Source of the DNA: an uncultured bacterium | Lineage (GTDB): Bacteria > Desulfobacterota > BSN033 > UBA1163 | Length of the DNA: 64,000 nt | Direction of reading: 5' to 3' | Assembly (NCBI GenBank): GCA_938045955.1 | Contig: CALIBK010000105.1 | Span: 5,187 to 69,186, forward strand | Shown: in pieces, positions 12,954-28,865 of the stretch | Numbering within the stretch: the stretch's first letter is position 1 | How the letters are laid out: every line of letters starts with the position of its first letter | Translations under genes and position numbers: made by a program | The notes under the pieces: generated by a model | Databases searched by the model: none | Seen by the model: the letters and a program-made list of their open reading frames with translations, nothing else | Told to the model about the DNA's origin: nothing

Positions 12954-13478
12954 TTAGATTTCGATCCCTTCTCGGGACTGGATCCCTTTTTGATAGTAGT
13001 GTTTTCTTTCGACCATCTCCGTGACCAGATCGGCTTTTTCGAGGATCTCCGGTTTTGCGTATCTTCCCGTGAGGATGAGCTCCACGGATTCGGGTTTGGA
13101 TTCCATGAGCTCAAGAACTTCTTTGAGGGGAATCAGGCCGTAGTCCACCGCCACATTGATCTCGTCCAGGATGACGATATCATAGGCTTTGCTACGGATG
13201 GCTTCTCTGGCAAGTTCGAATCCTTTTCGGGCCAGTTCCGTATCGATCGGATCGGGATTCGTTCTGGAGACGAAGGTCTCTCTGCCCATCTGGTTGATTG
13301 TGAGGTGAGGGGAGAGCCTTTTTGAGGCCTCGAGTTCTCCGTACTGGATGTTTCCCTTCATGAACTGGATCATCAGGACTTTGAGGCCGTGGCCCGCTGC
13401 TCGAAGGGCGAGGCCCAGGGCAGCGGTTGTCTTTCCCTTTCCATCTCCTGTATAGACCTGAATGAGACCTTTTTTCAT
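12954..13478 (-). CDS. cob(I)alamin adenosyltransferase (CobA/CobO/BtuR type)
   Basis: 174 aa; P-loop-like GLIQVYTGDGKGKTTAALGLALRAAGHG characteristic of CobA-type ATP:corrinoid adenosyltransferase; sits directly upstream of the mutase genes. Confidence 0.8.
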   Translation of the reverse strand: MKKGLIQVYTGDGKGKTTAALGLALRAAGHGLKVLMIQFMKGNIQYGELEASKRLSPHLTINQMGRETFVSRTNPDPIDTELARKGFELAREAIRSKAYDIVILDEINVAVDYGLIPLKEVLELMESKPESVELILTGRYAKPEILEKADLVTEMVERKHYYQKGIQSREGIEI

Positions 13479-13485
13479 AAGATTC

Positions 13486-15420
13486 TTAACTCAGCTCTCT
13501 GATCTGGGCGATGATCTGTTCGGTTTTGAAGTGTCTCAGGCTGATGGCGCTTGAGGGGCAGGTGGCGTTACAGGCCCCGCATCCTTTGCAGAGGGCTTCG
13601 TTGACACTCATCACCTTTCGATAGGGATCGAGTCTGAGGGCACGGTATTCGCAGATCTGTTCACAGAGGCCACAGCCTGCACAGACGAGTTCATCCACGT
13701 GGGCGGTGATCGGTTCGATCTTTACCTTTCCTGCAAAAAGCGGGACCGTAGCCCTCGAGGCTGCCCCGTGAGCCTGTGAGAGGGTATCCTGGATATCCTT
13801 GGGTCCCTGACAGGTGCCGGCGAGAAAGATCCCATCGGTTGCGGTATCGAGGGGTCTCAGTTTTGGATGGGCCTCGAGGTAGAAACGATCGGGTCCCTGA
13901 GAGAGTTTAAGGAGGCTTCTCAGTCCGTCGGAGTCAGCCCTCTGGGTAAGGCCTGTGGCGAGCACCACCAGATCAGCTTCCTCTTCATAGGGTTCTCCGA
14001 GGAGTTCGTCATCGGCTCGGATGAGAAGCTTTCCATTTCTCTGGATGATCTCGGAAGGGACCCCTTTTCGATAGAGAATCCCCTTCTTCTGGACCTGTTC
14101 GTAAAACTGTTCGTATCCCTTTCCAAAGGCTCTTACATCGATATAACAGATCGTGATCCTCGCTTCTGGAAGAAGTTCTTTGGCGAGGAAGGCCTGCTTG
14201 GCCGTAAACATGCAGCACACCCTTGAGCAGTATTCATTATTGACTGTCTTATCCCGTGAGCCCACACACTGGATAAAGAAGATCCTTTCGGGTTCTTTTC
14301 CGTCGATGAGGAGTCTTCCTTTCGTGGGTCCTTCGGGGGAGAGAAGCCTTTCGAACTCAAGGGCGGTAAGGACATTTGGATAGAGGCCGTAGCCCAATTC
14401 GGGTTTCTTTTTTGGATCGAAGGGGTCATAACCCGTGGCTACAATGATGGTCCCGATGGGGATGTCGATCTCCATCCCCACCTCCTCGAACTGAACCGCT
14501 CCTTCCGGGCAGACCTCCCGGCATCGAGTGCATTCTCCTTTTCGAAGATAGAGGCAGTGTTCGGGATCGATTAGGTAACTCAATGGAAAGGCATAAGGAG
14601 AGGGCAGATAGATGGCCTTTCTGCGGTCAAGGCCCATGTTCCATTCGTTGGGAATTTCAACCGGGCAGACCTTCTCACACTCTGCGCATCGATTACACTT
14701 CAGGGGATCCACGAAGCGGGGATACTTTCTGAGCTTTACTTTGAAGTTCCCTACGAATCCCTCCACTCCCGTCACCTCACAGAGCGTTAAAACGTGAAGA
14801 GAAGGGTATTGCTTGAGTGTCTCGATTCTGGACCTCAGGATTTCTGAGGTCTCCTCAAGGTTGGGGAAGGTTCGTGAGATCTGGGTGAGATGACCACCGA
14901 TCGACGGAGCCTTCTCCACGAGATAGACCTCGAAACCCGATGAAGCGATATCCAGAGAGGCCTGAATACCCGCGATTCCGGCTCCGATGATGAGGACAGA
15001 GGGAGTCACAGGGGCCTCTTTCTCCTCAAGGGGTTCGTGAAGGGAGACCCTGGCCACTGCCGAGGCTACAAGCTCCATTGCCTTCCGGGTTGCCTCATCA
15101 CGATCCTGATGGACCCAGGAGCACTGCTCCCGGATGTTTGCCATTTCGAAGAAATAAGGATTGAGTCCGGCTGAGCGAATCGCATTTCGATAAGTGGGCT
15201 CATGCATCCGTGGAGAACAAGCCGCAACCACAATCCGGTCGAGGCCAAGGGCTTTGATATCATTCTTGATAAGATCCTGACCTGGATCGGAACACATGTA
15301 CTGATAATGACGGGCCACCTCCACATGGGGAAGGGTCATCGCAAAGGCTCTTACTCGTTCCACATCTACTGTGGCCGCTATATTGATCCCGCAATGACAG
15401 ATATAAACACCGATCTTCAT
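13486..15420 (-). CDS. hdrA: heterodisulfide reductase subunit A-like flavoprotein (HdrA)
   Basis: 644 aa; N-terminal Cys-rich HdrA block (GVYICHCGINIA...YMCSDPGQ...VVAACSPRMHE...REQCSWVH), FAD motif IIGAGIAGIQASLD, two 2x[4Fe-4S] ferredoxin-like inserts (CNRCAECEKVCP / CTRCREVCP; CAGCGLCEQICE / CKGCGACNATCP). Confidence 0.85.
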   Translation of the reverse strand: MKIGVYICHCGINIAATVDVERVRAFAMTLPHVEVARHYQYMCSDPGQDLIKNDIKALGLDRIVVAACSPRMHEPTYRNAIRSAGLNPYFFEMANIREQCSWVHQDRDEATRKAMELVASAVARVSLHEPLEEKEAPVTPSVLIIGAGIAGIQASLDIASSGFEVYLVEKAPSIGGHLTQISRTFPNLEETSEILRSRIETLKQYPSLHVLTLCEVTGVEGFVGNFKVKLRKYPRFVDPLKCNRCAECEKVCPVEIPNEWNMGLDRRKAIYLPSPYAFPLSYLIDPEHCLYLRKGECTRCREVCPEGAVQFEEVGMEIDIPIGTIIVATGYDPFDPKKKPELGYGLYPNVLTALEFERLLSPEGPTKGRLLIDGKEPERIFFIQCVGSRDKTVNNEYCSRVCCMFTAKQAFLAKELLPEARITICYIDVRAFGKGYEQFYEQVQKKGILYRKGVPSEIIQRNGKLLIRADDELLGEPYEEEADLVVLATGLTQRADSDGLRSLLKLSQGPDRFYLEAHPKLRPLDTATDGIFLAGTCQGPKDIQDTLSQAHGAASRATVPLFAGKVKIEPITAHVDELVCAGCGLCEQICEYRALRLDPYRKVMSVNEALCKGCGACNATCPSSAISLRHFKTEQIIAQIRELS

Positions 15421-15454
15421 CCACAGCCTCTCGCAACGCGCACGGTGCTAAGCG

Positions 15455-17698
15455 TTACTTTGAACCCCTCATTTTCCCTCTCGCAAGGAGGGTGCAGGCA
15501 AGAGCGGCTGCTCCGCTTGCCTGAGCCACCGTGTCCGGGATATCTTTCGGACCCTGACAGCAGCCGGCAAGAAAGATCCCCTCGACCGATGTTCTTATGG
15601 GGTCATGCCCCGGGGCCTCTGCAAAAAAACCCTCATCGGAATTCTCGAGACGAAGAATCTTTCCCAGCCACTCGCTCTCCTTTCGAGGAACGAGCCCTGA
15701 AGCGAGGACCACCAGATCTGCCTCGAGTTCGAAGGGCTCCCCAAGAAGGGTATCCTCCCCTCTGACTATGAGCTTCCCATCCCTTCGGTAGATCTCCGAG
15801 GGATTGGCCCTTCGATAGACGATATGCTCCTTCTGGACCCTCTCGTAGAACTCTTCGAATCCCTTTCCGAATGCCCTCACATCCATATATAAAACAGTAA
15901 TCCGAGCATCCGGAATCTTATCCCTCAAGAGATGAGCCTGCTTGGCCGTATACATACAACAGACCCTGGAACAGTATTCATTACCAACCGTCTTATCCCT
16001 CGATCCCACACAGTGGATAAAGACCACCTCTTTCGGTTTCTTTCCGTCGATCAGAATCTCTCCCCTGGTGGGTCCTGAGGCGGAGCATAGCCTCTCCATC
16101 TCGAGCCCATGGAGCACATTCGGATAGAGGCCGTATCCAAACTCGGGTTTCTTCTTCGGGTCAAAGGGATCAAAACCCGTGGCAAGGATAATGGCTCCAA
16201 CATGAAGCTCCACAATCTCTTCCTTCATCTCATAGTTAATGGCTCTGGGCTGGCAGTATCTCGCACACTCCCCGCAGTCCGAGCAGCCTCCACAGCTGAG
16301 ACACCTCCTGGCCTCCTCCATCGCCTCCTCTGCGCTGAGACCCGGGCCCATGGGTCTCACCATATCCGGAAGGGATTCCCGCTTATCCCTCTCCTTCTCA
16401 GGAAGCTCGCTCCGGATGGGAGAGGGTTTTTCTCTTTCAGGCTCTCTATCTTCATGGAGGTCATGACCCCTGAGGTAGCGATCGATAGAGCGAGCAGCCT
16501 TCCTTCCCTGAGCCATCGCCTCAACGATACTTCCAGGCCCCCTCACCGCATCCCCTCCAGCAAAGACCCCCTCAAGATTTGTCTGAAGTGTCACAGGATC
16601 AACCTCGATCATCCCCCTCCGATCCCTCTTCAAATCCCTGAGAGCTTTTGAGAGAGGCTCCACTCCATTTGATCCCACACCCAAAAAGATTGCCCCGTAA
16701 GAGGCTCGAATCTCCTCGAAGGAGAGATCCTTCCCTACCTCTGTATGGAGTCGAACCTCGATTCCCATCCTTTCGATGAGAGAGAGGTCTCTGCGGACAA
16801 TTTCTCGCGGAAGACGATAGGAAGGAAACCCATGGGTGAGGAGTCCTCCCAGCTCTTCCATGGATTCAAAGATCGTGACCCGATAACCCATCCTCCGAAG
16901 ATCGAAGGCCGAAACCAGCCCCGAAGGCCCTCCACCCACAATGGCGACTCTTTGAGGTCTCTCTTCGGGGAGTTCAAACTGAAACTCCGGCTCCTCCACA
17001 TGATCCACAAGAAACCTCTTCAGATCGCAGATCCTCACCGGGCGATCCACATCGATCCGCTTGCACTGCCGCTCACAGGGATGACTGCAAACATAGGCCA
17101 GGATCCCGGGGAAGGGAAGGGCTTTTCGAACCAGACTCAGAGCCTCTCGGAACTTCCCATGAGAGATTAATGCTACATATCCCTGAGCATTACAGCCGAG
17201 AGGACAGGCCGCCCGACAGGGAGGGATTCCACGTCGATCAATCGTATACTTCAAGGGAACGGCCTGAGGAAATGGAATATAGATGGCCTTCCTCATCCCG
17301 AGGCCCATATCAAACTCATTGGGAAGGGTGACAGGACACTGAGCCACACAATCCGCACAGGCCGTACATTTGTTAATATCCACGTAGCGGGGCTTCTTAC
17401 GAACCTTGACTCTAAAATCTCCCGCCCTTCCTTCGATGGAGATGATCTCTGAGTAGGTGAGCAGATTGATATTGGGATGATTGGCTGTATCCACCATCTT
17501 GGGGGTGATGATACAGGCCGAACAGTCAAGGGTGGGGAAGGTCTTATCCAGTTGGGCCATGTGACCACCGATTGAAGGCTCCTTCTCGACCAGATGGACG
17601 AGAAACCCCTTGTCTGCAATATCGAGAGCAGCCTGCATCCCGGCTATGCCCCCACCTATGACCAGAGCCTCGGGAATCGTTCTCTCTTCAAAATTCAT
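15455..17698 (-). CDS. HdrL-type large HdrA-like flavoprotein with inserted NAD(P)H-binding (GltD/NfnB-like) domain
   Basis: 747 aa; HdrA-like FAD motif VIGGGIAGMQAALD at N-term and HdrA-like C-terminal half (CVGSRD...CSRVCCMY...FLAGCCQGP). Inserted region has ferredoxin Cys motifs and a second Rossmann motif VAIVGGGPSGL...GGDAVRG. Confidence 0.8.
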   Translation of the reverse strand: MNFEERTIPEALVIGGGIAGMQAALDIADKGFLVHLVEKEPSIGGHMAQLDKTFPTLDCSACIITPKMVDTANHPNINLLTYSEIISIEGRAGDFRVKVRKKPRYVDINKCTACADCVAQCPVTLPNEFDMGLGMRKAIYIPFPQAVPLKYTIDRRGIPPCRAACPLGCNAQGYVALISHGKFREALSLVRKALPFPGILAYVCSHPCERQCKRIDVDRPVRICDLKRFLVDHVEEPEFQFELPEERPQRVAIVGGGPSGLVSAFDLRRMGYRVTIFESMEELGGLLTHGFPSYRLPREIVRRDLSLIERMGIEVRLHTEVGKDLSFEEIRASYGAIFLGVGSNGVEPLSKALRDLKRDRRGMIEVDPVTLQTNLEGVFAGGDAVRGPGSIVEAMAQGRKAARSIDRYLRGHDLHEDREPEREKPSPIRSELPEKERDKRESLPDMVRPMGPGLSAEEAMEEARRCLSCGGCSDCGECARYCQPRAINYEMKEEIVELHVGAIILATGFDPFDPKKKPEFGYGLYPNVLHGLEMERLCSASGPTRGEILIDGKKPKEVVFIHCVGSRDKTVGNEYCSRVCCMYTAKQAHLLRDKIPDARITVLYMDVRAFGKGFEEFYERVQKEHIVYRRANPSEIYRRDGKLIVRGEDTLLGEPFELEADLVVLASGLVPRKESEWLGKILRLENSDEGFFAEAPGHDPIRTSVEGIFLAGCCQGPKDIPDTVAQASGAAALACTLLARGKMRGSK

Positions 17699-17707
17699 GG
17701 GTTAAAT

Positions 17708-18862
17708 TTATTTCAGTTTTCCTATCAGTGCGGAGGCGATGGTATTTTTCTGGATCTCTTTGGTCCCTTCGTAGATCTCCATGATCTTGGCATCCCGATA
17801 GAATCGCTCCACTTCGTACTCCGTAATATACCCGTAGCCTCCAAAGATCTGGATCGCCTCATCAGCGACCTCCACTGCCACCTTCGCCGAAAACATCTTC
17901 GCCATCGAGGTGAGCTTCGGATCAATCCCTTTATGATCAAAGTTCCAGGCCGCTTTATAGGTGAGAAGCCTTGCCGTCTCCACCTTGGTTGCCATATCGG
18001 CAAGCTTGTGCTGGGTGATCTGAAACTCCACGAGCTTCCTGCCGAACTGCTCCCTCTGGCGGGCATAATCGAGAGCCCGATCGAAGGCCCCCTGGGCAAT
18101 CCCGAGGGCCTGGGCCGCGATCTCAATCCGACTTTCGTCAAAGAACTCGAGAACCTGGTAAAACCCCTTCTTCTCTTCCCCGATCAGGTTGCTCACAGGA
18201 ACCCTCACATCACTGAAGGAGAGCTCTGCCGTAGAGGTCATCCGAATCCCCATCTTCGGAGTAATCTCCGAGACCTCAAGACCCTTTACCCCCTTCTCCA
18301 CCAGAATCGTACACTGACCCCGATAGGTAGGTCTCGCCTGAGGATCGGTTTGACAGAGAACCACAAAGAAATCGGCCAGAGAACCATTGGTGATAAAGGT
18401 CTTTGTCCCATTGATCACGAAGAAGTCTCCCTCCCTCACAGCAGTCGTTGACATCAGCGTGATATCACTTCCATGATTGGGTTCTGTATAGGCCCCACCC
18501 GAGATAGACTCGCCGCGGGTTATCGGAGGAAGATACCTCTTCTTCTGCTCCTCAGAACCAAAGCGAAGAATCACCTCCGAGGAGAAGTCCGTAAGGCTGA
18601 GGGCGACTCCCACCCCCGAGTCCTTCCGACAGAACTCCTCCACGATCAGGATATTCTCCATCACTCCATATCCCTGTCCCCCATAATCCTCAGGGAAATG
18701 GATCCCTATGAATCCGAGCTTTGCTGCCTTTTTCCATATCTCAAAGGGAAAGGCATGCTCCTTCTCCCACCGGAGGATCTTCTCCTTATCATACTCCCCT
18801 TCCATAAACTCACGGGCTGCCTTCTGAATATCCCTCTGCTCCTCGGTCAACTCAAAGTCCAT
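17708..18862 (-). CDS. acyl-CoA dehydrogenase (butyryl-CoA dehydrogenase-like)
   Basis: 384 aa; ACAD fold, catalytic motif IYEGTKEIQ; RBS GGAGGAGG; immediately upstream of hdrL and downstream of etfAB. Confidence 0.85.
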   Translation of the reverse strand: MDFELTEEQRDIQKAAREFMEGEYDKEKILRWEKEHAFPFEIWKKAAKLGFIGIHFPEDYGGQGYGVMENILIVEEFCRKDSGVGVALSLTDFSSEVILRFGSEEQKKRYLPPITRGESISGGAYTEPNHGSDITLMSTTAVREGDFFVINGTKTFITNGSLADFFVVLCQTDPQARPTYRGQCTILVEKGVKGLEVSEITPKMGIRMTSTAELSFSDVRVPVSNLIGEEKKGFYQVLEFFDESRIEIAAQALGIAQGAFDRALDYARQREQFGRKLVEFQITQHKLADMATKVETARLLTYKAAWNFDHKGIDPKLTSMAKMFSAKVAVEVADEAIQIFGGYGYITEYEVERFYRDAKIMEIYEGTKEIQKNTIASALIGKLK

Positions 18863-18880
18863 GAATCCTCCTCCGAACCT

Positions 18881-19858
18881 CTATTTTTTCATCTCTTTGA
18901 TCTTATCCTTGATGACCGGGACGATCTTGAAGAGATCGCCCACGATCCCGTAATGGGCGACGCTGAAGATCGGGGCCTTTGGATCCTTATTGATCGCAAT
19001 GATCGTCCCCGAACCCTTCATCCCTGCCACATGCTGAAAGGCACCGCTGATCCCGATGGCAATATAGACCTTGGGCTTTACGGTCTTTCCCGACGTCCCC
19101 ACCTGACAGGACTTGGGAAGCCACTTCTTATCCACCACAGGCCTTGAACAGGCCAGAGCCCCTCCAATCGAGTCCGCGAACTCCTTGACCAGAGGGATGT
19201 TTTCTGCGTCCTTGATCCCCCTTCCTACAGCAACCAGAATATCGGCCTGCGTGATATCGACCTCTCCCACCGAAGCCTCGACATACTCAATAAATCGCCT
19301 TCCCAGAACCTCATCACTGAGAGGGGAGGAGGTTGTGACAATCTCCCCCTCAATGGGCTTCTTCTCTTCCACCGAAAAGGCTCCCGATCGAAGAGTCACA
19401 AGATAAGGAGCCTTCCGAACAAAGGAGACCTCTGCATTGATCTTCCCTCCATAGATCTGACGGATAAGAGTAAAAGAATCATCTTTTGGTTCTATTCCGA
19501 TACAGTCGGTCGCAAGTGGCCAACCGAGCCTGATTGCTAAGGCAGGGACAAAATCCATTCCCTGAGCCGTGTGGCCGATTAGCGTAAGAAAGGGCTTTTT
19601 CTCTGAAAGAAACTGAAAGAGAACCCTCTCATAGGTCTCCGAATTGTAGAACTCGAGTCGATCGTCTTCGATGAGATAGACCCGATGGGCTTTTGATCGA
19701 AGGGCCTCTGCAAAAGGCTTTACGCCTTTTCCTAAAAGAACGACCGAAAGAGTCCCTTCCATAGCCTCGGCAAGCGATCTTCCCTTCGAGAGCATCTCCC
19801 AGGTGATATCCCTCAACTCCCCTCGACGATGTTCAGCGACCACCATGATCTCTTTCAT
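18881..19858 (-). CDS. etfA: electron transfer flavoprotein alpha subunit (EtfA)
   Basis: 325 aa; ETF-alpha FAD-binding C-terminal domain (PKVYIAIGISGAFQHVAGMKGSGTIIAINKDP...); start overlaps etfB stop (ATGA). Confidence 0.85.
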   Translation of the reverse strand: MKEIMVVAEHRRGELRDITWEMLSKGRSLAEAMEGTLSVVLLGKGVKPFAEALRSKAHRVYLIEDDRLEFYNSETYERVLFQFLSEKKPFLTLIGHTAQGMDFVPALAIRLGWPLATDCIGIEPKDDSFTLIRQIYGGKINAEVSFVRKAPYLVTLRSGAFSVEEKKPIEGEIVTTSSPLSDEVLGRRFIEYVEASVGEVDITQADILVAVGRGIKDAENIPLVKEFADSIGGALACSRPVVDKKWLPKSCQVGTSGKTVKPKVYIAIGISGAFQHVAGMKGSGTIIAINKDPKAPIFSVAHYGIVGDLFKIVPVIKDKIKEMKK

Positions 19859-20649
19859 CAGACAAGCCCTCCTTTATCCTTCAGAATCTCAAAGACCTTC
19901 GCTGCGACCTCCTCAGGTTTCCCCTCAAGTATCTGAGCCCCCTCCCCAACCAGAGGGAGAAAGAGCCTCTCAAGCCCGATATCCGAACCCTTAAGCCCAA
20001 CCTCCTCCTCTTTAAGCCCGAGATCAGAAAGCCCCCAAACCTTGATCTCCTTCTTTGCGACCTTCCGGATCCCCATAATCGAGACATACCGGGGCTCATT
20101 GATCCCTGTCTGAATGGTAAGAAGTGCTGGAAGCTTAACCTCCACCACCTCCTCCAATCCTCCCTCAAGCTCCCGATGAGCCCTGATCTTCCCATCCTCC
20201 ATTTCAACTCGGGTTACAATTGCCACATGAGAAAGACCGAGGAGCCTGGCGACCATCACCCCCACCTCTCCAAACCCATCATCCTCAGCCTGTGTTCCGG
20301 TAAGAATCAAATCATAAGGAAGCCTGCGGATTGCCTGTGCAAGAACCTTTGCTGTCGCAAACCCATCAGAACCCGAAAAGGCAGGATCCGTAAGCCGGAT
20401 CGCCTCATCCGCTCCCATGGCCAGACACTTCCTTAAAGACTCATTCGTATCCTCCCCTCCCATGGAGAGAACCGTCACCGTCCCCCCGAACCTCTCCTTG
20501 AGAAGAATCGCCTCCTCGATGGCATAACTGTCCCACTCATTGAGATCAAAGGCCAGTCCCGTCTTCTCAATATCTCGGCCCGATCGATCAATCGCAAGAT
20601 CCGCATCCGCCGTGTCCGGAACCCTCTTGATACAGACAATGATATTCAT
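19858..20649 (-). CDS. etfB: electron transfer flavoprotein beta subunit (EtfB)
   Basis: ORF track starts at a TTG (20655); the ATG at 20649 giving MNIIVCIKRVPDT matches the canonical ETF-beta N-terminus and has GAGGAGG RBS. Confidence 0.85.
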   Translation of the reverse strand: MNIIVCIKRVPDTADADLAIDRSGRDIEKTGLAFDLNEWDSYAIEEAILLKERFGGTVTVLSMGGEDTNESLRKCLAMGADEAIRLTDPAFSGSDGFATAKVLAQAIRRLPYDLILTGTQAEDDGFGEVGVMVARLLGLSHVAIVTRVEMEDGKIRAHRELEGGLEEVVEVKLPALLTIQTGINEPRYVSIMGIRKVAKKEIKVWGLSDLGLKEEEVGLKGSDIGLERLFLPLVGEGAQILEGKPEEVAAKVFEILKDKGGLV

Positions 20650-20668
20650 CACCAAGACCTCCTCTTTA

Positions 20669-23173
20669 TTATGAAATCTTCCCCCTCTTCGTTTCGATTC
20701 TTACCCACTTCGGCTCCCTTTCAGGATCCAAAGGGTGTGGAGAATAGAGTAAAAGAACCCCGGGCGATGGATTCCTTGAGAGATGAACCATAAACTCCAT
20801 CTCCCCTCCATCCGATGATAAAACCTTAACCCAATCCCCCTCCTCAATCCCGAGACTCCGGGCCTCCTCAGGGTTCATCTCCAAAACAGGTCTCTCCATG
20901 ACCTTTCGGAGATGCTCACTCCTCAGGCTCAAACTCCCCGACTGAAAGAGTGAAGGCCTCTCGATCAAGACATAAGGATATCCTTCAGGAGGAGCCTTCG
21001 TCTCAGGAGGAGAAAGAGGAACCAATCTTCGGAAAGGAAAATCCTCGATGGAGAGAAACCTCGCCCCTCGAGGCCACTGCCTCCCATCCTCAATCCCCTG
21101 ATAATACGAAACCTCCCTTTTTATCCCCTCCAGTACCTCAGATGGAGTCTCCCCCGGAAGAGAGACCTCAAAACGTTTCAGAAGATCCCGAAAGATCTCA
21201 AAGTCTGAACGAGACTGCCCCAGGGAAGCCCTGATGGGATGAAGTCCCTGAACCCTCCGCTCAAGACTCGTATAACTGCCCTCCTTCTCAACAAAAGAAG
21301 AGACCGGAAGCACGAGATCCGCCCTCTCAAGAAGGGCATTTGCGAAGAGATCCTGGACCACCAGAAACTCAAGCCCCTCCAATGAAGAAATGGGCCTTTC
21401 TCCAACCGCATAAAGCCCCTTGATCTGACCTCGAGAGATCTTCGATTCCATCTCCCGAAGACCCCCTCGAAGAAAAGGAATCTTCATATCCATTAATCCC
21501 TGAGTATTGCACCTCTCTAAAAGAAGAAGAATCCCCGTAGCCTCCCTTCCCAGATGCCCGGTGAGAAGAGCGAGATTCCCACAGAGAGTTCCTATCTGCC
21601 GGGCATAGGAATAAGACCACGAACCTGGACAGATAAGAATCATCGCACTTTTCGCCCGGGAAAGGCTCCTTACCGCCTCCCCGAGCAACTCCCTTGACTC
21701 AGGAGAAAGCCCGTTAAGAATTCTCAGATACTCATCCTTCCTCTCAAAAAGAGTCTCAAACCCTTCTGTATGATTATGAATAAACCCTACGTCCTGAAGC
21801 CCTTCCTCAAGAATCAAACCCACCATCCCGACGAGCAGTCTTACCTCCTCTCCTGGTCTGGAGGAGAGAAAGATCGAAGGAGGCTGAAGAGGGGAGAGCC
21901 GGGTCTTCTCACTAAGGGCAATGTCATAGCTTCCAAGGACAATAAGACGGGCACGATTCCTGCGAATCGCAAGATGCATCTCATTCTTCACAATCGGATG
22001 GGTCAGGGAAGGATCTCCCCCTACCACCAAAACCACATCCGAGCCACGAATCTCACCGATAGAGTTTGTCGAAACTCCATAACCTAAGACCTCAGAAAGT
22101 CCGTCCGAAAGACCAAAACCCGAAACCCCTCCATCCAGAACAATCTCACCAGTCCCTAATGTCTCAACAAAAAGCTTCCTGAAAAGATAATACTCCTCAT
22201 TGGTCAAACGAGAAGAGAGAAGAACTCCAATCCCTTCAGCTCCATGGCGCTCGCTAATCGATTCAAGACGGTGATAAACTACCCCCAAGGCCTCCTCCCA
22301 GGAGACCTCCCTGAGACTCCCATTGACCCTGAGAAGAGGGGATCTGAGCCTTTGAGAGGAATTCACAAAATCCCAGCCAAAACGACCCTTCACACAGAGA
22401 TTCCCATCATTGGAGCCTAAAAGAGGATCCGAATAAACCCTCTTAATCTCCCCTCCCTTGGAAGCGATCGTCAACAAACAGCCACAACCACAATAAGGAC
22501 AGGGAGTCGTCGTCTCCAGACACTCCCAGAGCTTCGTCCCATAATCAAAACACTCCGACGTAATGGCCCCAACCGGACAGGTATCCAGACACTGACCACA
22601 GAACTCACACCGAAGAGGACGATGGAAATCCGTATCAATCACACACCGAATCCCCCGACGGGTGAAAGAGAGCTCCCCAACCCCCTGAACCTCCTCACAG
22701 ATCCTCACACATCGACCACAAAGAATACACTTATTCCCATCCCGAAAAAGAAGTGGGGAGGAATCATCCACCGGATATCTGATCGGCTCCCAGGGATACT
22801 GAGTCTCCTGTAGACCATACTCATAGAGGAGCCTCTGAAGCTCACACTCCCCCTCCCTCTCACACCTCGGACAGATCATTGGATGATTAAGAAGAATGAG
22901 TTGAAGCTGAAGCCTGCGAGCATCCAGAACCCTCGGGGAATGAGTATAAACCTCCATCCCATCCCCTACAGGTGTAAAACAGGAAGGAAGAAGCTCAGAA
23001 CCCCCCTTTACCTCCACCACACAGAGCCGACAGGCCCCAAAAGGCAGAAGCCTCCTATCATCACAGAGAGTCGGAATCCGAATACCCACTGAACGGGCCA
23101 CCTCAAGAATCGTCCGACCCCTCTTTGCCTCCACCTCCATCCCGTCAATTATGAGCTTAATGCTCCCGGCCAT
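20669..23173 (-). CDS. NuoG-like 75-kDa-type subunit: N-terminal [2Fe-2S]/[4Fe-4S] ferredoxin domains fused to a molybdopterin-oxidoreductase-like domain (formate-dehydrogenase-alpha fold, apparently without catalytic Cys/Sec)
   Basis: 834 aa; N-term IKLIIDGMEVEAKRGRTILE...TLCDD..GACRLC (2Fe-2S), CxxCxxxC motifs, then MopB-like block DVVLVVGGDPSLTHPIV. Region aligning to the FDH Sec/Cys (CARVUHG) reads LDGGVSGFG, by eye only. Confidence 0.7.
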   Translation of the reverse strand: MAGSIKLIIDGMEVEAKRGRTILEVARSVGIRIPTLCDDRRLLPFGACRLCVVEVKGGSELLPSCFTPVGDGMEVYTHSPRVLDARRLQLQLILLNHPMICPRCEREGECELQRLLYEYGLQETQYPWEPIRYPVDDSSPLLFRDGNKCILCGRCVRICEEVQGVGELSFTRRGIRCVIDTDFHRPLRCEFCGQCLDTCPVGAITSECFDYGTKLWECLETTTPCPYCGCGCLLTIASKGGEIKRVYSDPLLGSNDGNLCVKGRFGWDFVNSSQRLRSPLLRVNGSLREVSWEEALGVVYHRLESISERHGAEGIGVLLSSRLTNEEYYLFRKLFVETLGTGEIVLDGGVSGFGLSDGLSEVLGYGVSTNSIGEIRGSDVVLVVGGDPSLTHPIVKNEMHLAIRRNRARLIVLGSYDIALSEKTRLSPLQPPSIFLSSRPGEEVRLLVGMVGLILEEGLQDVGFIHNHTEGFETLFERKDEYLRILNGLSPESRELLGEAVRSLSRAKSAMILICPGSWSYSYARQIGTLCGNLALLTGHLGREATGILLLLERCNTQGLMDMKIPFLRGGLREMESKISRGQIKGLYAVGERPISSLEGLEFLVVQDLFANALLERADLVLPVSSFVEKEGSYTSLERRVQGLHPIRASLGQSRSDFEIFRDLLKRFEVSLPGETPSEVLEGIKREVSYYQGIEDGRQWPRGARFLSIEDFPFRRLVPLSPPETKAPPEGYPYVLIERPSLFQSGSLSLRSEHLRKVMERPVLEMNPEEARSLGIEEGDWVKVLSSDGGEMEFMVHLSRNPSPGVLLLYSPHPLDPEREPKWVRIETKRGKIS

Positions 23174-23179
23174 CTCCTC

Positions 23180-25030
23180 TTACTCTATCGCCCCGAATCT
23201 GCAGGCCGTAATACAGGAACGACACCGAATACAACGCTCCGGATCAATCCTCGCAGGCTCCTTCTTCTCCCAGCTGATCGCCTCCACAGGACAGGCCTTC
23301 TTGCAAAGCCCACACATCTTACACTTCTCAGAATTGACCCTGAACCTGATCAGATTCACACAGACCAACGCAGGACAGCGCTTCTCCTCTATATGAGCCT
23401 CATACTCGGACCGAAAGTACCGAATCGTAGAAAGCACAGGATTGGGAGCCGTCTTTCCCAGTCCACAATGGGAAGTCTCTTTAATATGGTTTCCAAGACG
23501 CTCCAGAAGATCGATATCCTCAGCCCTTCCATCCCCGGAGACAATCCGATTCAAGAGATTGAGCATCACCTTCATCCCCACCCGACAGGGAACACACTTC
23601 CCACAGGACTCATCCACAGAAAACTCCGTGAAAAACCTCGCCGTATCCACCATACAGGTTCGATCATCCATCACCACCAGTCCCCCAGAACCCATCATCG
23701 CCCCAGCCTCATCGAGAGAATCAAAATCCACCTCCGTATCTAACAGAGATTCAGGCAAACAGGCCCCGGATGGACCCCCAATCTGAATTGCCTTAAACTG
23801 CCTCTTCTCCGGGATCCCCCCTCCTATTTCATAAATAATCGTTCGAAGCGTCGTTCCCATAGGAACCTCAATCAGACCCACATTTTGAACCGCCCCGGTC
23901 AGAGCAAAAACCTTCGTCCCCTTCGAACCCTTCGTCCCGAGCTCCGAAAACCACTTCCCCCCGTGAAGAAGAATACTCGGAACATTGGCAAACGTCTCCA
24001 CATTGTTGAGCACCGTAGGCTGCCCCCAGAGCCCTGCCTCTGTCGAACGAGGAGGCTTGATCCTCGGCATCCCACGCCTCCCCTCAAGCGAATACATCAG
24101 AGCCGTCGACTCCCCACAGACAAAAGCCCCGGCCCCCGGATAGATCTCAATATCAAAATCAAACCCCGCTCCCAAAATATCCCTCCCCAACACACCCCAC
24201 TTCCTTGCCTGATCAATCGCAATCGTAAGCCGATGAATCGCCAGAGGATACTCCGCCCGCACATAGATATAACCCTGATGAGAATCAATCGCATAACCAC
24301 AAATGATCATCCCTTCCAGAACCGCATGAGGATCCGCCTCAAGTATAGAACGATCCATAAAGGCACCCGGATCGCCCTCATCCCCATTGCAGATCACATA
24401 CTTCGGAAACGAAGCATACCTGCGTCCCTCCTCCCACTTCCTCCCGGTCGGAAAACCCGCACCCCCACGACCCCTCAGACCCGAAACCTTTACCTCCTCG
24501 ATCACCTCCTCAGGCCTCATCGAAGAAAGAACCTTCGCAAGCGCCGCATAGCCATCCCTCGCAATATAGTCCTCAATCCTCTCAGGATTGATCAAACTCC
24601 TATTCCTGAGCGCCCTCAAGACCTGATGACGAAAAAACGGAATCTCACCCATCAATGAGATCTTACTCTTCGACCGAGGATCTATATAAAGAAAATCCTC
24701 AACCGGCTTGCCCTTCACAAAATGCTCCTCCACCAGACGAGAAACATCCTCGGGTCTTAACTTCCGATAAAAGATCCCCTCAGGGTAAACCACCAGAATA
24801 GGACCCTCCGCACAAAAACCATTACACCCGGAGATAAAAACCCTCACCCTCTCCGTTAACCCACGACGATCAAGCTCCTCCTCAAGCCTTCTGCGAACCT
24901 TCAGAGAATTACAGGCAACACAGCCCGTACCCGCACAAACCATCAACCCATACTGACCCTCCCCCAAAACAAATGAAGGAGTAAGCGTTTTCCTCACCTC
25001 CGAAAGATTCTCGATCGTTAGGCGAACCAT
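23180..25030 (-). CDS. NuoF-like NADH-binding 51-kDa-type subunit with N-terminal thioredoxin-like [2Fe-2S] domain and C-terminal 2x[4Fe-4S] ferredoxin
   Basis: 616 aa; FMN/NADH motifs (GLRGRGGAGFPTGRKWEEG; CGESTALMYSLEG), [4Fe-4S] SxxC...CGKCVPCR, C-terminal CKMCGLCKKACP / CIRCRSCITACR. Confidence 0.85.
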   Translation of the reverse strand: MVRLTIENLSEVRKTLTPSFVLGEGQYGLMVCAGTGCVACNSLKVRRRLEEELDRRGLTERVRVFISGCNGFCAEGPILVVYPEGIFYRKLRPEDVSRLVEEHFVKGKPVEDFLYIDPRSKSKISLMGEIPFFRHQVLRALRNRSLINPERIEDYIARDGYAALAKVLSSMRPEEVIEEVKVSGLRGRGGAGFPTGRKWEEGRRYASFPKYVICNGDEGDPGAFMDRSILEADPHAVLEGMIICGYAIDSHQGYIYVRAEYPLAIHRLTIAIDQARKWGVLGRDILGAGFDFDIEIYPGAGAFVCGESTALMYSLEGRRGMPRIKPPRSTEAGLWGQPTVLNNVETFANVPSILLHGGKWFSELGTKGSKGTKVFALTGAVQNVGLIEVPMGTTLRTIIYEIGGGIPEKRQFKAIQIGGPSGACLPESLLDTEVDFDSLDEAGAMMGSGGLVVMDDRTCMVDTARFFTEFSVDESCGKCVPCRVGMKVMLNLLNRIVSGDGRAEDIDLLERLGNHIKETSHCGLGKTAPNPVLSTIRYFRSEYEAHIEEKRCPALVCVNLIRFRVNSEKCKMCGLCKKACPVEAISWEKKEPARIDPERCIRCRSCITACRFGAIE

Positions 25031-25033
25031 CTC

Positions 25034-25513
25034 TTACGAAAAACTCCGAATCGCCTCAAGGGCCTTCCTTAAATCGAGGCCCCCGAAGGTCTCCTGCCCA
25101 ACCGCCATCACCGGTGCAAGCCCACAGGCCCCAAGACAACGAACCGCCTCGAGAGAAAACCTCCGATCCCTCGTCATCCCCCCAACCTCCACCTCCAACT
25201 CTCGCTGCAAACCCTCCAGAATCTCCTTCGACCCTCGAACATAACAGGCCGTCCCTAAACAGACCCGAATCACATGCCTCCCCCTCGGATGAGTCGTAAA
25301 AAAAGAATAAAAAGAGACGACCCCGAATACCTGAGACGAAGAAAGATGAAGCCCCTCGGCCACCCTCTGCTGAACCCTCCGAGGAAGATACCCACAGATG
25401 TCCTGAACCTCCTTAAGAACCGGGATCAACGCCCCAGGCCTCCCCCGATACCGAGAAATCACCTGCTCAACCCTCTCCCACTCCTCCTTCGAAATCGTCT
25501 CAACCCACCTCAT
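25034..25513 (-). CDS. NuoE-like 24-kDa-type [2Fe-2S] thioredoxin-like ferredoxin subunit
   Basis: ATG at 25513 (track shows an upstream TTG) overlaps the stop of the preceding gene (ATGA); motif HVIRVCLGTACYVRGS...CLGACGLAPV. Confidence 0.8.
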   Translation of the reverse strand: MRWVETISKEEWERVEQVISRYRGRPGALIPVLKEVQDICGYLPRRVQQRVAEGLHLSSSQVFGVVSFYSFFTTHPRGRHVIRVCLGTACYVRGSKEILEGLQRELEVEVGGMTRDRRFSLEAVRCLGACGLAPVMAVGQETFGGLDLRKALEAIRSFS

Positions 25514-26661
25514 CAACCCACCACCTCAGCCAGTAACTCCACCAGATCCATCACCCGAACCCTATCCTCATAACCAGAAGTCTTCACCGCATCCTCCAGA
25601 GTCAATACACAAAGAGGACAGGCCGTAACCAATACCTCAGCCCCTAAGGCCACTGCATCCTGAACCCGCAACTCCGCAAGCCTCTGCCCCACGTCAGAAG
25701 AAGACTCCACCCACATCTTCCCCCCTCCACCCTCACAACAGAGACTCCTCTCCCTCGAACGATCCATCTCACGAAACTGAATCCCAGGAATAGAAGCTAT
25801 AAGCTCACGGGGAGGATCAAAAAGACCATTCTGCTTACCCAAAAAACAGGGATCATGATAGGTTACCACCTTCCTCAACTCACGATCAAAACGAATCTTC
25901 CCTTCCCGAAACGCACGAAGAAGAATCTCAGAACTATGAAAAACCTCAAACCTCCCCTGAGGATACTCATTGCGAAACGTATTCAACCCATGAGGACAGG
26001 TCGTAAAAAGCCGCTTCACCCCATAAGCCTCGAACACCTCGAGATTCCCATCCCGCAACTCCTCAAATAATCCCGCCTCCCCCATCCTCCGAATCTCATT
26101 ACCACAACACTGCTCCTCAATACCCAGAATCCCAAAATCGACCCCCGCACGATCCAAAAGAAAGACCATCGAGCGCGCAACCTCCTGAATCCGAGGATCC
26201 GAAGAAGCCGTACAACCCACAAAATAAAGATACTCCGCCCGCTCCCCACGGGAGAAATCCTTCACCCTCAATCCCTCCGGCAACTCCCTCAACCACTCCG
26301 TCCTCTTACTCTTCGACTTGCCCCACGGATTGCGATGCTTATAAGCATTCTCCATCGCCTCAATCAACGTCTTCGGAATCCTACCCTCCTCAACCAACAC
26401 CCCCCTTAATCCAATCACTAAATCCATGGGCTTAAGCCCACGAGGACACCGAAGCGTACACGTTTTGCACGTCGTACAATCCCAGATCTCCTCCCTCTCC
26501 CCAACCCGATCCAGAACCCTCCCCAAAACCCCCTCAATCATCAAACGACGAATATTTAACCTCGACTTCATCGCCACAGGACAACCCCCCGTACACTTCC
26601 CACACTGATAACAACCATAAAGATCATACTGCTGAGCAAAAGTGATTTTGTTGGGTTCCAT
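25513..26661 (-). CDS. HdrD/GlpC-like Fe-S oxidoreductase (2x[4Fe-4S] + two CCG cysteine-rich domains), soluble
   Basis: 382 aa; CYQCGKCTGGCP and CTTCKTCTLRCP ferredoxin motifs followed by two CCG repeats (CCGNE...CPHG; CFLGKQNG...CCEGGGG...CPLC); no predicted TM helices; RBS AAGGAG. Confidence 0.75.
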   Translation of the reverse strand: MEPNKITFAQQYDLYGCYQCGKCTGGCPVAMKSRLNIRRLMIEGVLGRVLDRVGEREEIWDCTTCKTCTLRCPRGLKPMDLVIGLRGVLVEEGRIPKTLIEAMENAYKHRNPWGKSKSKRTEWLRELPEGLRVKDFSRGERAEYLYFVGCTASSDPRIQEVARSMVFLLDRAGVDFGILGIEEQCCGNEIRRMGEAGLFEELRDGNLEVFEAYGVKRLFTTCPHGLNTFRNEYPQGRFEVFHSSEILLRAFREGKIRFDRELRKVVTYHDPCFLGKQNGLFDPPRELIASIPGIQFREMDRSRERSLCCEGGGGKMWVESSSDVGQRLAELRVQDAVALGAEVLVTACPLCVLTLEDAVKTSGYEDRVRVMDLVELLAEVVG

Positions 26662-26726: not shown

Positions 26727-27872
26727 TTATCCTTTCAATATTTCTCTCGAGATTACGATTCGCTGGACTTCTGAAGTTCCTTCGTAAAGGGTTGTTCCGA
26801 TAATATCTCTTAAATAGCGTTCCACGGGATAATCCTTTGTGTAGCCATAACCCCCCAACATCTGAACTGCCCGGATAGCAACGTTTCTTGCGGTCTCCGT
26901 AGCAAAGAGTTTGGCCATGGAGGCTTCCTTGGTAAAGGGCAATTTATTCTCCTTCAGATAGGCTGCCCGGAGGACAAGAAGTTGGGCTGCCTCTAACTCT
27001 GTGTAGGAATCTGCAATCATCCACTGAATCGCTTCAAAAGAAGAGAGGGGTTTCCCGAAGGCCTCACGCTCTTTCACGTATTCGGTGGCAAAATCGATGG
27101 CTGCAAATCCAACCCCAACAGCTAATGAACCAATGCCAATCCTTCCTCCATCAAGTTCCATCATGGCAATCTTAAATCCCTCTCCCTCCTTTCCAAGGAG
27201 ACAGTTCGCGGGTATGACGCAGTTGTCAAAGATCAATTCATTCGTTAAGGAGGCTCGGTGTCCCATCTTTTCTTCAGCTTTTCCTACAATAAAACCCGGA
27301 GTTCCCTTTTCTACCACAAAGGCGCTTATGCCTTTTCCTTTTTTGGCATTCCGATCCGTCACTGCCCAGGTGACGGTGACCCCTGAAGCTTCTCCACTTG
27401 TAATCAAGGTCTTTGACCCATTAAGAATATAGGTCTCCCCTTTGCGGACAGCGGTGGTTCGAATATTGGCAGCATCTGATCCTGTGTGAGGTTCTGTGAT
27501 GGCAAAAGAGCCCGCAGGATACTCTCCACTGCATAACTTTTTTACATGCTTCCTTTTTATCTCTTCCTCCCCGAATTCATAAATGACTTCAGCCACCATA
27601 TTGGTGACAGAGGTCGTGACTGCATGTGAAGCACATCCCTTTGCAATCTCTGTGATGGCCAGACTATAGGCAATCACTCCCACTTCGGAGCCCCCGTATT
27701 CCACAGGAATATTCATTCCCATTAATCCCAGCTCTGCCATCCGCTTTAGATTTTCATAGGGAAAAGTTTTCTCTTCGTCGTAGAGGGCAGCAACGGGTTT
27801 GATGTTCTTCTCCGTAAACTCCCTCACCATATCCCGAATCATTTCCTGCTCTGAAGTGAGCCTGAAATCCAT
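26727..27872 (-). CDS. acyl-CoA dehydrogenase (butyryl-CoA dehydrogenase-like)
   Basis: Start set at MDFRLTSEQEM (ATG 27872; an alternative upstream ATG at 27902 exists); motif LYEGTSEVQRIV. Confidence 0.8.
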   Translation of the reverse strand: MDFRLTSEQEMIRDMVREFTEKNIKPVAALYDEEKTFPYENLKRMAELGLMGMNIPVEYGGSEVGVIAYSLAITEIAKGCASHAVTTSVTNMVAEVIYEFGEEEIKRKHVKKLCSGEYPAGSFAITEPHTGSDAANIRTTAVRKGETYILNGSKTLITSGEASGVTVTWAVTDRNAKKGKGISAFVVEKGTPGFIVGKAEEKMGHRASLTNELIFDNCVIPANCLLGKEGEGFKIAMMELDGGRIGIGSLAVGVGFAAIDFATEYVKEREAFGKPLSSFEAIQWMIADSYTELEAAQLLVLRAAYLKENKLPFTKEASMAKLFATETARNVAIRAVQMLGGYGYTKDYPVERYLRDIIGTTLYEGTSEVQRIVISREILKG

Positions 27873-28829: not shown

Positions 28830-28865
28830 CAAACCCTCCGTGAAAAGATTATTGCAAAGTTAACA

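Follow-up and report, generated by a model that had tools for sequence, protein, structure and literature searches.

A conserved cluster of Hdr-, Bfu- and ETF-type genes with an acyl-CoA dehydrogenase in an uncultured bacterium: a candidate soluble system for acyl-CoA electron coupling

Organization of the gene cluster

The DNA considered here (the window, meaning the whole 64-kb stretch, with coordinates counted from its first letter) is part of contig CALIBK010000105.1 of an uncultured bacterium. On its minus strand, nine open reading frames (ORFs) at 13486-26661 encode, in this order, an HdrD-like CCG protein, BfuC, BfuB, BfuA, EtfB, EtfA, an acyl-CoA dehydrogenase (ACAD2), HdrL and HdrA. 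Domains of the window's ORFs were assigned with Pfam and NCBIfam profiles and solved relatives were sought by PDB sequence search, and both the order and the position of the nine genes agreed with an earlier, sequence-only reading of the same DNA. Here we discuss the possibility that their products form a soluble complex linking the acyl-CoA/enoyl-CoA couple to NAD(H) and ferredoxin through an electron-transferring flavoprotein (ETF).

The genes of the set are separated by 3, 6, 13, 18, 9 and 34 nt, in agreement with the tight spacing noted before. The two overlaps had been read as ATGA, but at both junctions (HdrD-like/BfuC and EtfB/EtfA) the letters are TGATG with an overlap of 1 nt, which becomes 4 nt only with an alternative TTG start. 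A scan for promoters and terminators stayed at chance level and was uninformative. No transmembrane segment was predicted in any of the nine proteins, and all nine are soluble. For comparison, orthologous loci were taken to be those numbered L006-L040 and L083, in which the NuoG-like protein (BfuA) is at least 53% identical to that of the window, and their gene order was read by tblastn of the window proteins.

The sequence-only reading had seen in this set a mirror of BamDEFGHI, the electron module of class II benzoyl-CoA reductase (BCRII), whose structure in Geobacter metallireducens has been described by cryo-electron microscopy and cryo-electron tomography in a preprint of April 2026 (bioRxiv 10.64898/2026.04.10.717634). 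In that complex, BamGH, of the HydBC type, take in NADH and reduced ferredoxin by confurcation, the path to BamE runs over BamI and the MvhD-like BamF, and BamE is a fused HdrA dimer in which the first unit holds the bifurcating FAD (Lys280, Cys59-Cys62) and the flavin of the second is non-bifurcating; BamD is HdrD-like, unsuited to heterodisulfide binding, and serves as the high-potential exit (10.64898/2026.04.10.717634). Moreover, ETF docks on BamD in cells, and BCRII together with ETF and butyryl-CoA dehydrogenase reduces crotonyl-CoA in vitro (10.64898/2026.04.10.717634), which is a direct precedent for the wiring between CCG protein and ETF proposed below. Likeness to the Bam subunits is judged throughout from the published descriptions of the modules, not from aligned Bam sequences, and on this basis the cluster would hold counterparts of BamD, BamG, BamH and BamI and an HdrA-type pair, to which ETF and ACAD are added; the mirror fails in that BamF is absent and the equivalent of BamE is split into two genes. 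No AOR-family/BamB or BamC-like ORF was found in the cluster, in the orthologous loci or among the window ORFs of at least 120 residues (Pfam, tblastn), so that EtfAB and an ACAD indeed stand in the place of the tungsten enzyme BamBC, and no FlpD/MvhD (BamF-like) domain was found in the cluster or the window ORFs, the gaps being too short to hide one. Since BamBC and BamF are both absent, the cluster appears to share the modular logic of BCRII without being a BCRII member.

The BfuCBA module

BfuC (25034..25516; 160 residues) is a NuoE-like, thioredoxin-like [2Fe-2S] protein of the BfuC/HydC/BamG kind that matches PF01257 at 5e-47. Its four cluster cysteines are conserved in 24/24 orthologs, and its matches to the NCBIfam profiles HoxE and NuoE lie below cut-off. 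BfuB (23180..25030; 616 residues) is the NuoF-like FMN/NAD(H) subunit of the BfuB/HydB/BamH kind, recognized by Pfam and by PDB matches that span its full length, namely bifurcating HydB (7q4v_B, E 2e-237), NiFe-HydB (7t2r_B), StnB (8oh5_B) and NfnB, with E values ranging from 1e-200 to 1e-237, whereas the match to Nqo1 of complex I is weaker (6e-117). It combines an N-terminal [2Fe-2S] domain, the FMN/NAD(H) domain and a C-terminal 2 x [4Fe-4S] ferredoxin-like domain, and the cysteine ligands are conserved. By these matches the NuoEF-like pair belongs, as does BamGH, to the HydBC/Bfu type, and it provides the BfuBC core of the Bfu family, with the FMN/NAD(H) site, the [2Fe-2S] and 2 x [4Fe-4S] clusters in BfuB and the [2Fe-2S] cluster in BfuC. 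This core was defined by Schut et al. 2022, who placed BamGHI in the same family as "Bam-Bfu" (PMC9304861).

BfuA (20669..23173; 834 residues) is the NuoG- and BamI-like member of the module. It scores under the NCBIfam cut-offs of both NuoG and the formate dehydrogenase (FDH) alpha subunit, possesses the Pfam domains Molybdopterin and Molydop_binding, and finds its best PDB matches among FdsA-type FDHs. When it is aligned to FdsA of Rhodobacter capsulatus (6tg9_A), however, the segment ARVCHSPT stands opposite GGVSGFGL, C386-H387 being replaced by S-G, and R587 is not conserved. The columns of the molybdenum site are hypervariable in 22 homologs and hold neither Cys nor selenocysteine (Sec), while every Fe-S cysteine is invariant; the Fe-S domains of the homologs are 67-78% identical and the molybdenum domains 45-55%, and the BfuA gene contains no in-frame TGA. 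With the molybdenum-ligand site gone and the Fe-S cysteines invariant, BfuA is best read as an Fe-S wire and scaffold whose molybdopterin domain has degenerated, in the manner of NuoG, NiFe-HydA and StnC. A catalytic FDH or hydrogenase subunit, which the sequence-only reading feared it might have overlooked, was thus looked for and dismissed, the molybdenum-ligand Cys/Sec and the catalytic His both being lost from hypervariable columns.

HdrL and HdrA

HdrL (15455..17698; 747 residues) consists of an HdrA core with a GltD/NfnB-like insert. Residues 10-156 match residues 145-291 of methanogen HdrA (5odc_A) and residues 472-743 match residues 293-570, together making up the thioredoxin-reductase-like core. 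The insert lies inside the inserted ferredoxin domain, carries 2 x [4Fe-4S] and FAD, and matches StnC and NfnA. The CxxC pair (C59, C62) and the equivalent of Lys409 are still present in HdrL, and all of its cysteines are conserved in 12 orthologs. It starts directly with the thioredoxin-reductase-like domain and has its cysteine pair at 59/62, which fits the first BamE unit as described, and the lysine would lie about 300 residues beyond the position of Lys280 in BamE, approximately the length of the insert, as we infer from the published description of BamE.

HdrL had been taken for a second HdrA paralog with an NAD(P)H domain, and only the first half of this description can be kept. The comparison that decides the matter is with a natural 1440-residue fusion of HdrL and HdrA, found in two metagenomic loci (L064 and L078) in the same order as the window genes and with its GltD-like NAD(P)H module intact. 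By BLASTP, HdrL residues 37-343 align to residues 1-308 of the fusion in L064 and residues 345-742 to residues 456-869, so that 147 residues (309-455 of L064) are missing. Likewise, the Pfam profile Pyr_redox_2 is covered from position 139 to 291 in HdrL and from 2 to 291 in L064, the NCBIfam GltD-family matches of HdrL fall in two stretches of which the best span only the first half of each profile, and the best 120 homologs of HdrL are all of the short type (738-801 residues). An NAD(P)H site in HdrL was accordingly rejected on the 147-residue deletion and the partial Pyr_redox_2 domain. As the insert has no NAD(P)H-binding Rossmann domain, the FMN site of BfuB, which had also been proposed earlier and is upheld, is the only recognizable NAD(H) site.

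HdrA (13486..15420; 644 residues) is full-length and of the methanogen type, with no MvhD domain. It matches methanogen HdrA (5odc_A) at E 4e-223 over residues 2-641, a likeness approximately equal to that among methanogen HdrAs themselves; the lysine that contacts flavin N5 is kept and the Fe-S cysteines are all conserved in 10 orthologs. The fusion in L064 and L078 lends Rosetta-stone support to a heterodimer of HdrL and HdrA, and by analogy the two proteins look like a split BamE.

The CCG protein, the ETF and the acyl-CoA dehydrogenase

The first gene of the cluster (25513..26661; 382 residues) encodes an Fe-S protein resembling HdrD, BamD and EtfD, with two CCG domains and Fer4_8 by Pfam. 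Its best PDB match is mycobacterial EtfD (9ojn_A, residues 406-742, E 7e-58, against its own residues 56-378), compared with 1e-18 for HdrC and no match to HdrB at E <= 1e-5. It carries 2 x [4Fe-4S] motifs besides the two CCG domains, and 17/17 cysteines are invariant in 17 orthologs. In the aligned orthologs, CCG motif 2 is complete and motif 1 ends in CPHG with an invariant Gly, leaving one cluster site with four rather than five cysteines. EtfD is a membrane enzyme that accepts electrons from ETF (PMC13083937, PDB 9OJN), and the CCG protein would accordingly seem, judged by its sequence, to be an EtfD/BamD-type protein without the membrane anchor; we propose it as the subunit on which ETF docks and exchanges electrons.

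A membrane-anchored paralog is encoded in the same window (60227-62281, minus strand). This 684-residue protein of the EtfD/EMO type has two CCG domains, keeps CPHC, and shows approximately five hydrophobic segments in its first 245 residues, where the 382-residue protein has none; the latter is 38% identical over its whole length to the cytoplasmic part of the paralog. An NrfD/DsrP-like membrane protein (62523-63716, minus strand) adjoins it. The presence of the 684-residue protein means that the standard route from ETF to quinone is also encoded in the window.

The ETF itself is formed by EtfB (19858..20655; 265 residues; PF01012) and EtfA (18881..19858; 325 residues; PF01012 and PF00766). 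The best PDB match of EtfB is the AMP-containing W3A1 ETF (1o94_C, 189 bits), followed by bifurcating CarD with 167 bits. As a proxy for bifurcating EtfB we used the segments NPxD, GADTxAT and DGDTxQVG, which are common to five solved bifurcating EtfBs and were derived here from alignments; at these places EtfB of the cluster reads NEWD, GSDGFAT and DDG[FY]G(Q/E)VG, the last being DDGFGEVG in the window, and the altered third segment (residues 112-140 checked) recurs in 23/23 orthologs. EtfB thus does not appear to be of the canonical bifurcating type, in which case bifurcation must lie elsewhere. ACAD2 (17708..18862; 384 residues) is butyryl-CoA-dehydrogenase-like, contains all three ACAD domains, and scores best with the NCBIfam types AcrC and Acd, below cut-off. 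It has the catalytic-base motif YEGT at 364, whose catalytic Glu is kept both here and in a further dehydrogenase, ACAD1, encoded upstream.

Operon context

Upstream of the nine genes on the same strand (26727..32504), Pfam recognizes a PaaK-like AMP ligase, a CBS/ACT protein, a MerR regulator, a thiolase, a 3-hydroxyacyl-CoA dehydrogenase and ACAD1, and downstream (10783..13478, minus strand) a CobO-type ATP:corrinoid adenosyltransferase, the large subunit of an acyl-CoA mutase and its B12-binding small subunit, CobO starting 7 nt past the end of HdrA. The best PDB match of the large subunit is HcmA (4r3u_A, 8e-173). In its segments WTMRMF and FIAQKT it has Phe and Gln at the positions of Tyr89 and Arg207 of methylmalonyl-CoA mutase, which we take to be the signature of isobutyryl-CoA mutase (ICM), and by those two residues the enzyme would be ICM-like. 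Ligases, an ABC transporter, a thiolase, a 3-hydroxyacyl-CoA dehydrogenase, three ACADs and the ICM-like mutase make up the context of the cluster, and from this gene content the operon appears to be catabolic and to serve (iso)butyrate.

Further downstream of the mutase (7171-10558, minus strand) lie two SCP-x-type thiolase-like proteins of 382 and 385 residues, which are followed by two DUF35/ChsH2-type OB-fold zinc-ribbon proteins, and the third ACAD is found at 5909-7117. The pairing of SCP-x thiolase with DUF35 is typical of thiolytic steps on branched or unusual acyl-CoAs.

Conservation among related loci

More than 120 clusters of homologs of the NuoG-like protein were found at 55-80% identity, and every one came from metagenomes or metagenome-assembled genomes labelled Thermodesulfobacteriota, Deltaproteobacteria or Syntrophaceae. 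Two contigs of these clusters showed the same gene order, and a metagenome scan gave 80 further loci. Conservation of the neighbourhood, on which the sequence-only reading had made itself depend, is borne out: the order CCG-BfuC-BfuB-BfuA-EtfB-EtfA-ACAD2-HdrL-HdrA-CobO-mutase is found in every sufficiently long orthologous locus, with the absence of BfuB from two loci (L014 and L015) as the sole exception. In every one of them EtfBA-ACAD2 lie between BfuA and HdrL with short gaps, and nearly every orthologous locus in which it was measured keeps the 1-nt overlap of EtfA start and EtfB stop. Among the subunits, the NuoG-like protein has diverged most, at 53-59% identity against 70-90% for the rest. 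CobO follows HdrA in 11/11 loci that reach that far, at a distance of 7 to 145 nt, with the mutase next in nine, and the order of the upstream beta-oxidation genes is repeated in L006, L015, L025, L028, L040 and others. The conserved unit therefore extends beyond the nine genes to the upstream beta-oxidation set and the downstream CobO/B12 mutase, and the arrangement is far beyond chance. A scan of genome contigs with 8-mers of the NuoG-like protein, which is poorly conserved, returned distant matches only (at most 31% identity).

Two forms of the cluster exist, a compact one (the window and L006) and one with an insert of approximately 2.5 kb between the CCG gene and BfuC. The insert is present in 12 of the 21 measurable orthologous loci, for example at L007:3272-5785, and encodes DRTGG, HATPase_c, DRTGG, PHP and HATPase_c genes. 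In loci of this form BfuC is followed by a 127-residue ORF with no Pfam match, and in L007 an additional ORF of 465 residues, also with no Pfam match, precedes BfuA. The compact form of the window, free of the accessory regulatory genes of many relatives, is a good candidate for heterologous expression. In L014 (1205-2040) and L015 (5253-6085), which are probably one lineage sampled twice, the BfuB gene is absent from an otherwise full cluster, the spacer of approximately 340 nt between BfuC and BfuA is non-coding, and no BfuB match occurs elsewhere in either locus.

Loci of a second tier, in which the NuoG-like protein is 32-38% identical, carry Sec-interrupted FDH-type genes with only BfuCB adjoining. 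They were considered as Bam clusters and rejected, since Sec-split FDH-type BfuA genes with BfuCB are a different family, and the "FDH5 with NuoEF" of Ca. Phosphitivorax (Hao 2020), considered as the same cluster as that of the window, proved to be a Sec-type FDH cluster as well. In L064 (33-4355) and L078, the HdrL-HdrA fusion is followed by MetV/MetF (methylene-tetrahydrofolate reductase), a CooC-like ATPase, BfuC, BfuB and a TGA-interrupted (Sec) FDH-type BfuA, a set that looks like a Wood-Ljungdahl-linked Hdr/Bfu/FDH cluster. In L084 (1291-13919), a Sec-split FDH-type BfuA directly precedes EtfB and EtfA (41% and 37% identical to those of the window), followed by a multihaem cytochrome, an Fe-S protein, NrfD, a molybdopterin oxidoreductase and a CCG protein (37% identical), from which it follows that ETF genes have been recruited beside other Bfu/CCG contexts too.

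Proposed mechanism and alternative explanations

We tentatively propose, at a probability just short of even, that the cluster encodes a soluble complex of the BCRII type which in the (iso)butyrate operon would catalyze acyl-CoA + reduced ferredoxin + 2 NAD+ <-> enoyl-CoA + ferredoxin + 2 NADH and would run oxidatively, a direction favoured by the catabolic character of the operon. The proposed net reaction is that of Bcd-EtfAB, carried out with an Hdr-type flavin. By homology, NAD(H) would bind at the FMN of BfuB, and electrons would reach the HdrL/HdrA heterodimer by way of BfuC, BfuB and BfuA, the last serving as an Fe-S wire with its molybdopterin domain as scaffold only. The bifurcating FAD would most likely reside in HdrL, from which neither the CxxC pair nor the Lys has been lost, and the truncated GltD-like FeS/FAD insert of HdrL may replace the missing BamF-type adaptor. 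The high-potential branch would lead through the EtfD/BamD-like CCG protein to EtfAB, ACAD2 and the acyl-CoA/enoyl-CoA couple, and the low-potential branch through the ferredoxin-like domains of HdrA to ferredoxin, whose sites may be in HdrA and/or BfuB. When run oxidatively, the complex would re-oxidize ETF independently of the membrane at the expense of reduced ferredoxin, which may come from Rnf or carbon monoxide dehydrogenase, for example, and the Bfu module would do no more than reduce NAD+. A possible precedent for such a plain NAD(H) module is the HydABC-type hydrogenase of Syntrophomonas wolfei, which is not known to need ferredoxin. NADH-dependent H2 formation by this trimeric enzyme is cited in PMC6687939.

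The sequence-only reading had sketched a link of acyl-CoA oxidation to NAD(H) and ferredoxin, the direction and stoichiometry of which are put in doubt by thermodynamics. The potentials concerned are -10 mV for crotonyl-CoA, +16 mV for ETF, approximately -280 to -320 mV for NADH and approximately -500 mV for ferredoxin (PMC9304861; 10.64898/2026.04.10.717634). If a canonical Bfu module (NADH + reduced ferredoxin <-> approximately -400 mV) is combined with Hdr bifurcation to ferredoxin, the calculated sum is NADH + enoyl-CoA -> NAD+ + acyl-CoA, and the reverse, acyl-CoA + NAD+ -> enoyl-CoA + NADH, costs approximately +60 kJ/mol. A canonically coupled Bfu module would thus make the oxidative direction thermodynamically impossible, and in the reductive direction it would yield no net gain of ferredoxin unless there is an acceptor below the ferredoxin potential.

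Several further observations weigh, like this balance, against the oxidative soluble complex. BfuB keeps every hallmark of the ferredoxin-coupled Bfu enzymes; HdrL has neither the N- nor the C-terminal domain of HdrA; and in HdrA the positions of C197/C200 read E/E (TFPNLEETSEIL), leaving no CxxC near the flavin. In addition, electrons would have to find a path to the Hdr flavin with no MvhD/BamF adaptor, the variant without BfuB in L014 and L015 would have no recognizable NAD(H) site, and the membrane EtfD/EMO-like protein of the window could re-oxidize ETF in the standard way. There are two ways out of the thermodynamic difficulty: either Bfu acts as a plain NAD(H) module, or the output goes, as in BCRII, to an acceptor outside the cluster.

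The second way out leads to an unlikely yet serious alternative, in which the cluster is a generator of electrons below the ferredoxin potential: BfuCBA would confurcate NADH and reduced ferredoxin, HdrL/HdrA would then bifurcate, and ETF would do no more than drain off the high-potential electrons, which it would hand to enoyl-CoA with the help of ACAD or else to menaquinone through the membrane EMO-like protein, while electrons of very low potential (down to approximately -0.6 to -0.8 V) could go to a reductase encoded elsewhere, to a low-potential carrier, or to cob(II)alamin for the CobO/B12 mutase. By our calculation this is the only thermodynamically consistent direction if both modules are canonical, its logic is the one demonstrated for BCRII, and the full ferredoxin-coupling equipment of BfuB fits it. 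So do the constant CobO neighbour of HdrA (11/11 loci, with the mutase in nine) and the insert on the low-potential side of HdrL, whose final flavin domain has lost the accompanying NAD(P)H domain and could be a novel output site. Yet neither the conserved cluster nor the 64-kb window holds an AOR/BamB protein, a class I benzoyl-CoA reductase or a dehydratase activator that could receive such electrons, and a catabolic beta-oxidation operon makes reduced ETF rather than consuming it. Corrinoid repair, for its part, needs a mere trickle of electrons, which other organisms supply from ordinary flavodoxin or ferredoxin, and the reduction of cob(II)alamin is kept as a low-probability variant only.

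Somewhat less probable still is that two co-regulated systems share the operon, EtfAB-ACAD2 delivering electrons through the membrane EtfD/EMO-like protein to quinone, and the CCG protein with BfuCBA, HdrL and HdrA forming an NADH/ferredoxin:disulfide (e.g., DsrC-type) oxidoreductase comparable to FlxABCD-HdrABC or HdrABC/HdrL. The EtfD/EMO-like membrane protein needed for the first system is encoded in the window, DsrC is the presumed substrate of HdrABC/HdrL and Flx-Hdr in sulfate reducers (PMC5947623), and the CCG protein has a complete motif 2 and keeps the CC pair in motif 1. On the contrary, EtfBA-ACAD2 sit in the midst of the Bfu/Hdr genes in every orthologous locus, the CCG protein is EtfD-like (7e-58) with no HdrB match, the precedent of BamD favours docking of ETF over disulfide binding, and the cluster contains no dsrC-like gene.

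That a canonical bifurcating Bcd-EtfAB performs the coupling, with the Hdr and Bfu genes as unrelated neighbours, is very improbable: ACAD2 and EtfAB are adjacent and of the general Bcd/Etf type, and CarD is the second-best match of EtfB, but EtfB lacks all three bifurcating segments, is matched best by the AMP-containing W3A1 ETF, and is embedded with EtfA and ACAD2 among the Bfu/Hdr genes of the orthologous loci. An NAD-dependent or bifurcating FDH or hydrogenase with the NuoG-like protein as its catalytic subunit, to which the molybdopterin domains and the FdsA-type matches might point, has next to no probability, given the replaced and hypervariable molybdenum-ligand and catalytic His positions, the gene free of in-frame TGA, the molybdenum domains as the least conserved part of the protein, and the true Sec-type paralogs that form a separate tier in other gene contexts.

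Other features of the window

The genes from the B12-binding subunit through the CCG protein (10000-26000) have a G+C content of 51-54%, against 42-48% across most of the window, and on the plus strand between 18 and 26 kb the GC skew is strongly negative, down to -0.40, with a positive AT skew. This shift in composition of the redox block could reflect a different origin or a strong codon or amino-acid bias. Elsewhere in the window (48758-52640, minus strand), three genes encode a molybdoenzyme of the xanthine dehydrogenase/aldehyde oxidase family, with MoCoBD (779 residues), [2Fe-2S] (160 residues) and FAD (325 residues) subunits, flanked by TRAP transporters and an AMP-forming ligase; this may be a 4-hydroxybenzoyl-CoA-reductase-like enzyme or a similar one acting on aromatic or heterocyclic compounds.

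Significance

The disposal of electrons from acyl-CoA dehydrogenation (approximately -10 mV) in strict anaerobes has long been a puzzle in the study of syntrophy and sulfate reduction. A soluble ETF route would matter here because the only demonstrated route is membrane-bound and leads from ETF through EMO/EtfD to menaquinone with reverse electron transport. If the soluble BCRII-type complex proposed above is correct, there would be a second, soluble ETF route, widespread in metagenomes of Thermodesulfobacteriota and Syntrophaceae, and the question would become directly testable. Serial confurcation and bifurcation with ETF, published in 2026 for BCRII, would then be a reusable design that extends beyond the reduction of aromatic rings. 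We consider it possible, at rather less than an even chance, that the cluster represents the first soluble route, independent of the membrane, for the most difficult step of anaerobic or syntrophic fatty-acid oxidation (ETF from the dehydrogenation of butyryl-/isobutyryl-CoA-derived acyl-CoA re-oxidized with reduced ferredoxin to give NADH) or, run forwards, a source of sub-ferredoxin electrons for, e.g., corrinoid reduction, and either way a second "hierarchically coupled" class after BCRII, with a new GltD-like adaptor.

Comparison with known systems

The sequence-only reading knew of no characterized complex with this subunit set, and full-text literature likewise gave no description of the gene set, although an earlier mention is possible, as key reviews on bifurcating ETF and HdrA diversity lay outside the search. 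A paper on deep-sea Chloroflexi names the components as separate systems only.

Like BCRII, Bam[(BC)2DEFGHI]2 with its ETF BamOP, the cluster has a HydBC-type module (BamGH, BfuCB), a NuoG-like wire (BamI, BfuA), a putative HdrA-type flavin pair (BamE, HdrL with HdrA) and an HdrD-like CCG subunit in which one non-cubane cluster site is altered (BamD; CPHG here). ETF would partner the CCG subunit here too, and bam clusters of Desulfococcus contain ETF genes (PMC5109826). It differs in having neither the tungsten BamBC nor the MvhD-like, Sec-containing BamF, in the division of the HdrA dimer over two genes, with a truncated GltD-like FeS/FAD insert in HdrL, in the ACAD built into the cluster, and in a context of (iso)butyrate beta-oxidation instead of aromatic degradation.

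With EtfD/EMO, the ETF:(methyl)menaquinone oxidoreductase, the CCG protein shares the two [4Fe-4S] and two CCG sites over the soluble region that takes electrons from ETF (E 7e-58). It differs in having no transmembrane/haem domain, so that it cannot reduce quinone, and, while keeping the Hdr-type CC pair in motif 1, it has CPHG in place of the CPHC of EtfD.

In the Bfu family (HydABC, NiFe-HydABCSL, StnABC/NfnABC), BfuB and BfuC find full-length counterparts, and BfuA the same Fe-S set, including a degenerate FDH-like domain as in NiFe-HydA (7t2r_A) and StnC; by contrast, the cluster has no H-cluster, NiFe, Mo or NADPH site, and, as in Bam-Bfu, the place of the third substrate would be taken by the Hdr module. 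With Bcd-EtfAB of Clostridia and Acidaminococcus it has in common the proposed net reaction and the ACAD + EtfAB trio. That enzyme, however, bifurcates at the FAD of EtfB, whereas EtfB of the cluster has no such motifs, an Hdr-type flavin is proposed in its stead, and six extra subunits are present.

Finally, the full-length HdrA is shared with HdrABC-MvhAGD, HdrABC/HdrL and FlxABCD-HdrABC, and tandem hdrL-hdrA genes are also found in locus VIII of Desulfobacterium autotrophicum and in Sfum_0819-0824 of Syntrophobacter fumaroxidans. In contrast to these Hdr complexes, the cluster contains no MvhD/FlxD, its CCG subunit is EtfD-like and not HdrB-like, its partner is ETF/ACAD instead of heterodisulfide or DsrC, and its HdrL is without the NAD(P)H domain by which HdrL (sensu Strittmatter 2009) is defined in D. 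autotrophicum and S. fumaroxidans. The pairing of Bam-type modules with ETF is already known from BCRII; what would be new is a soluble cluster that dispenses with BamBC and BamF, incorporates an ACAD and divides its BamE-like part into a pair of proteins.

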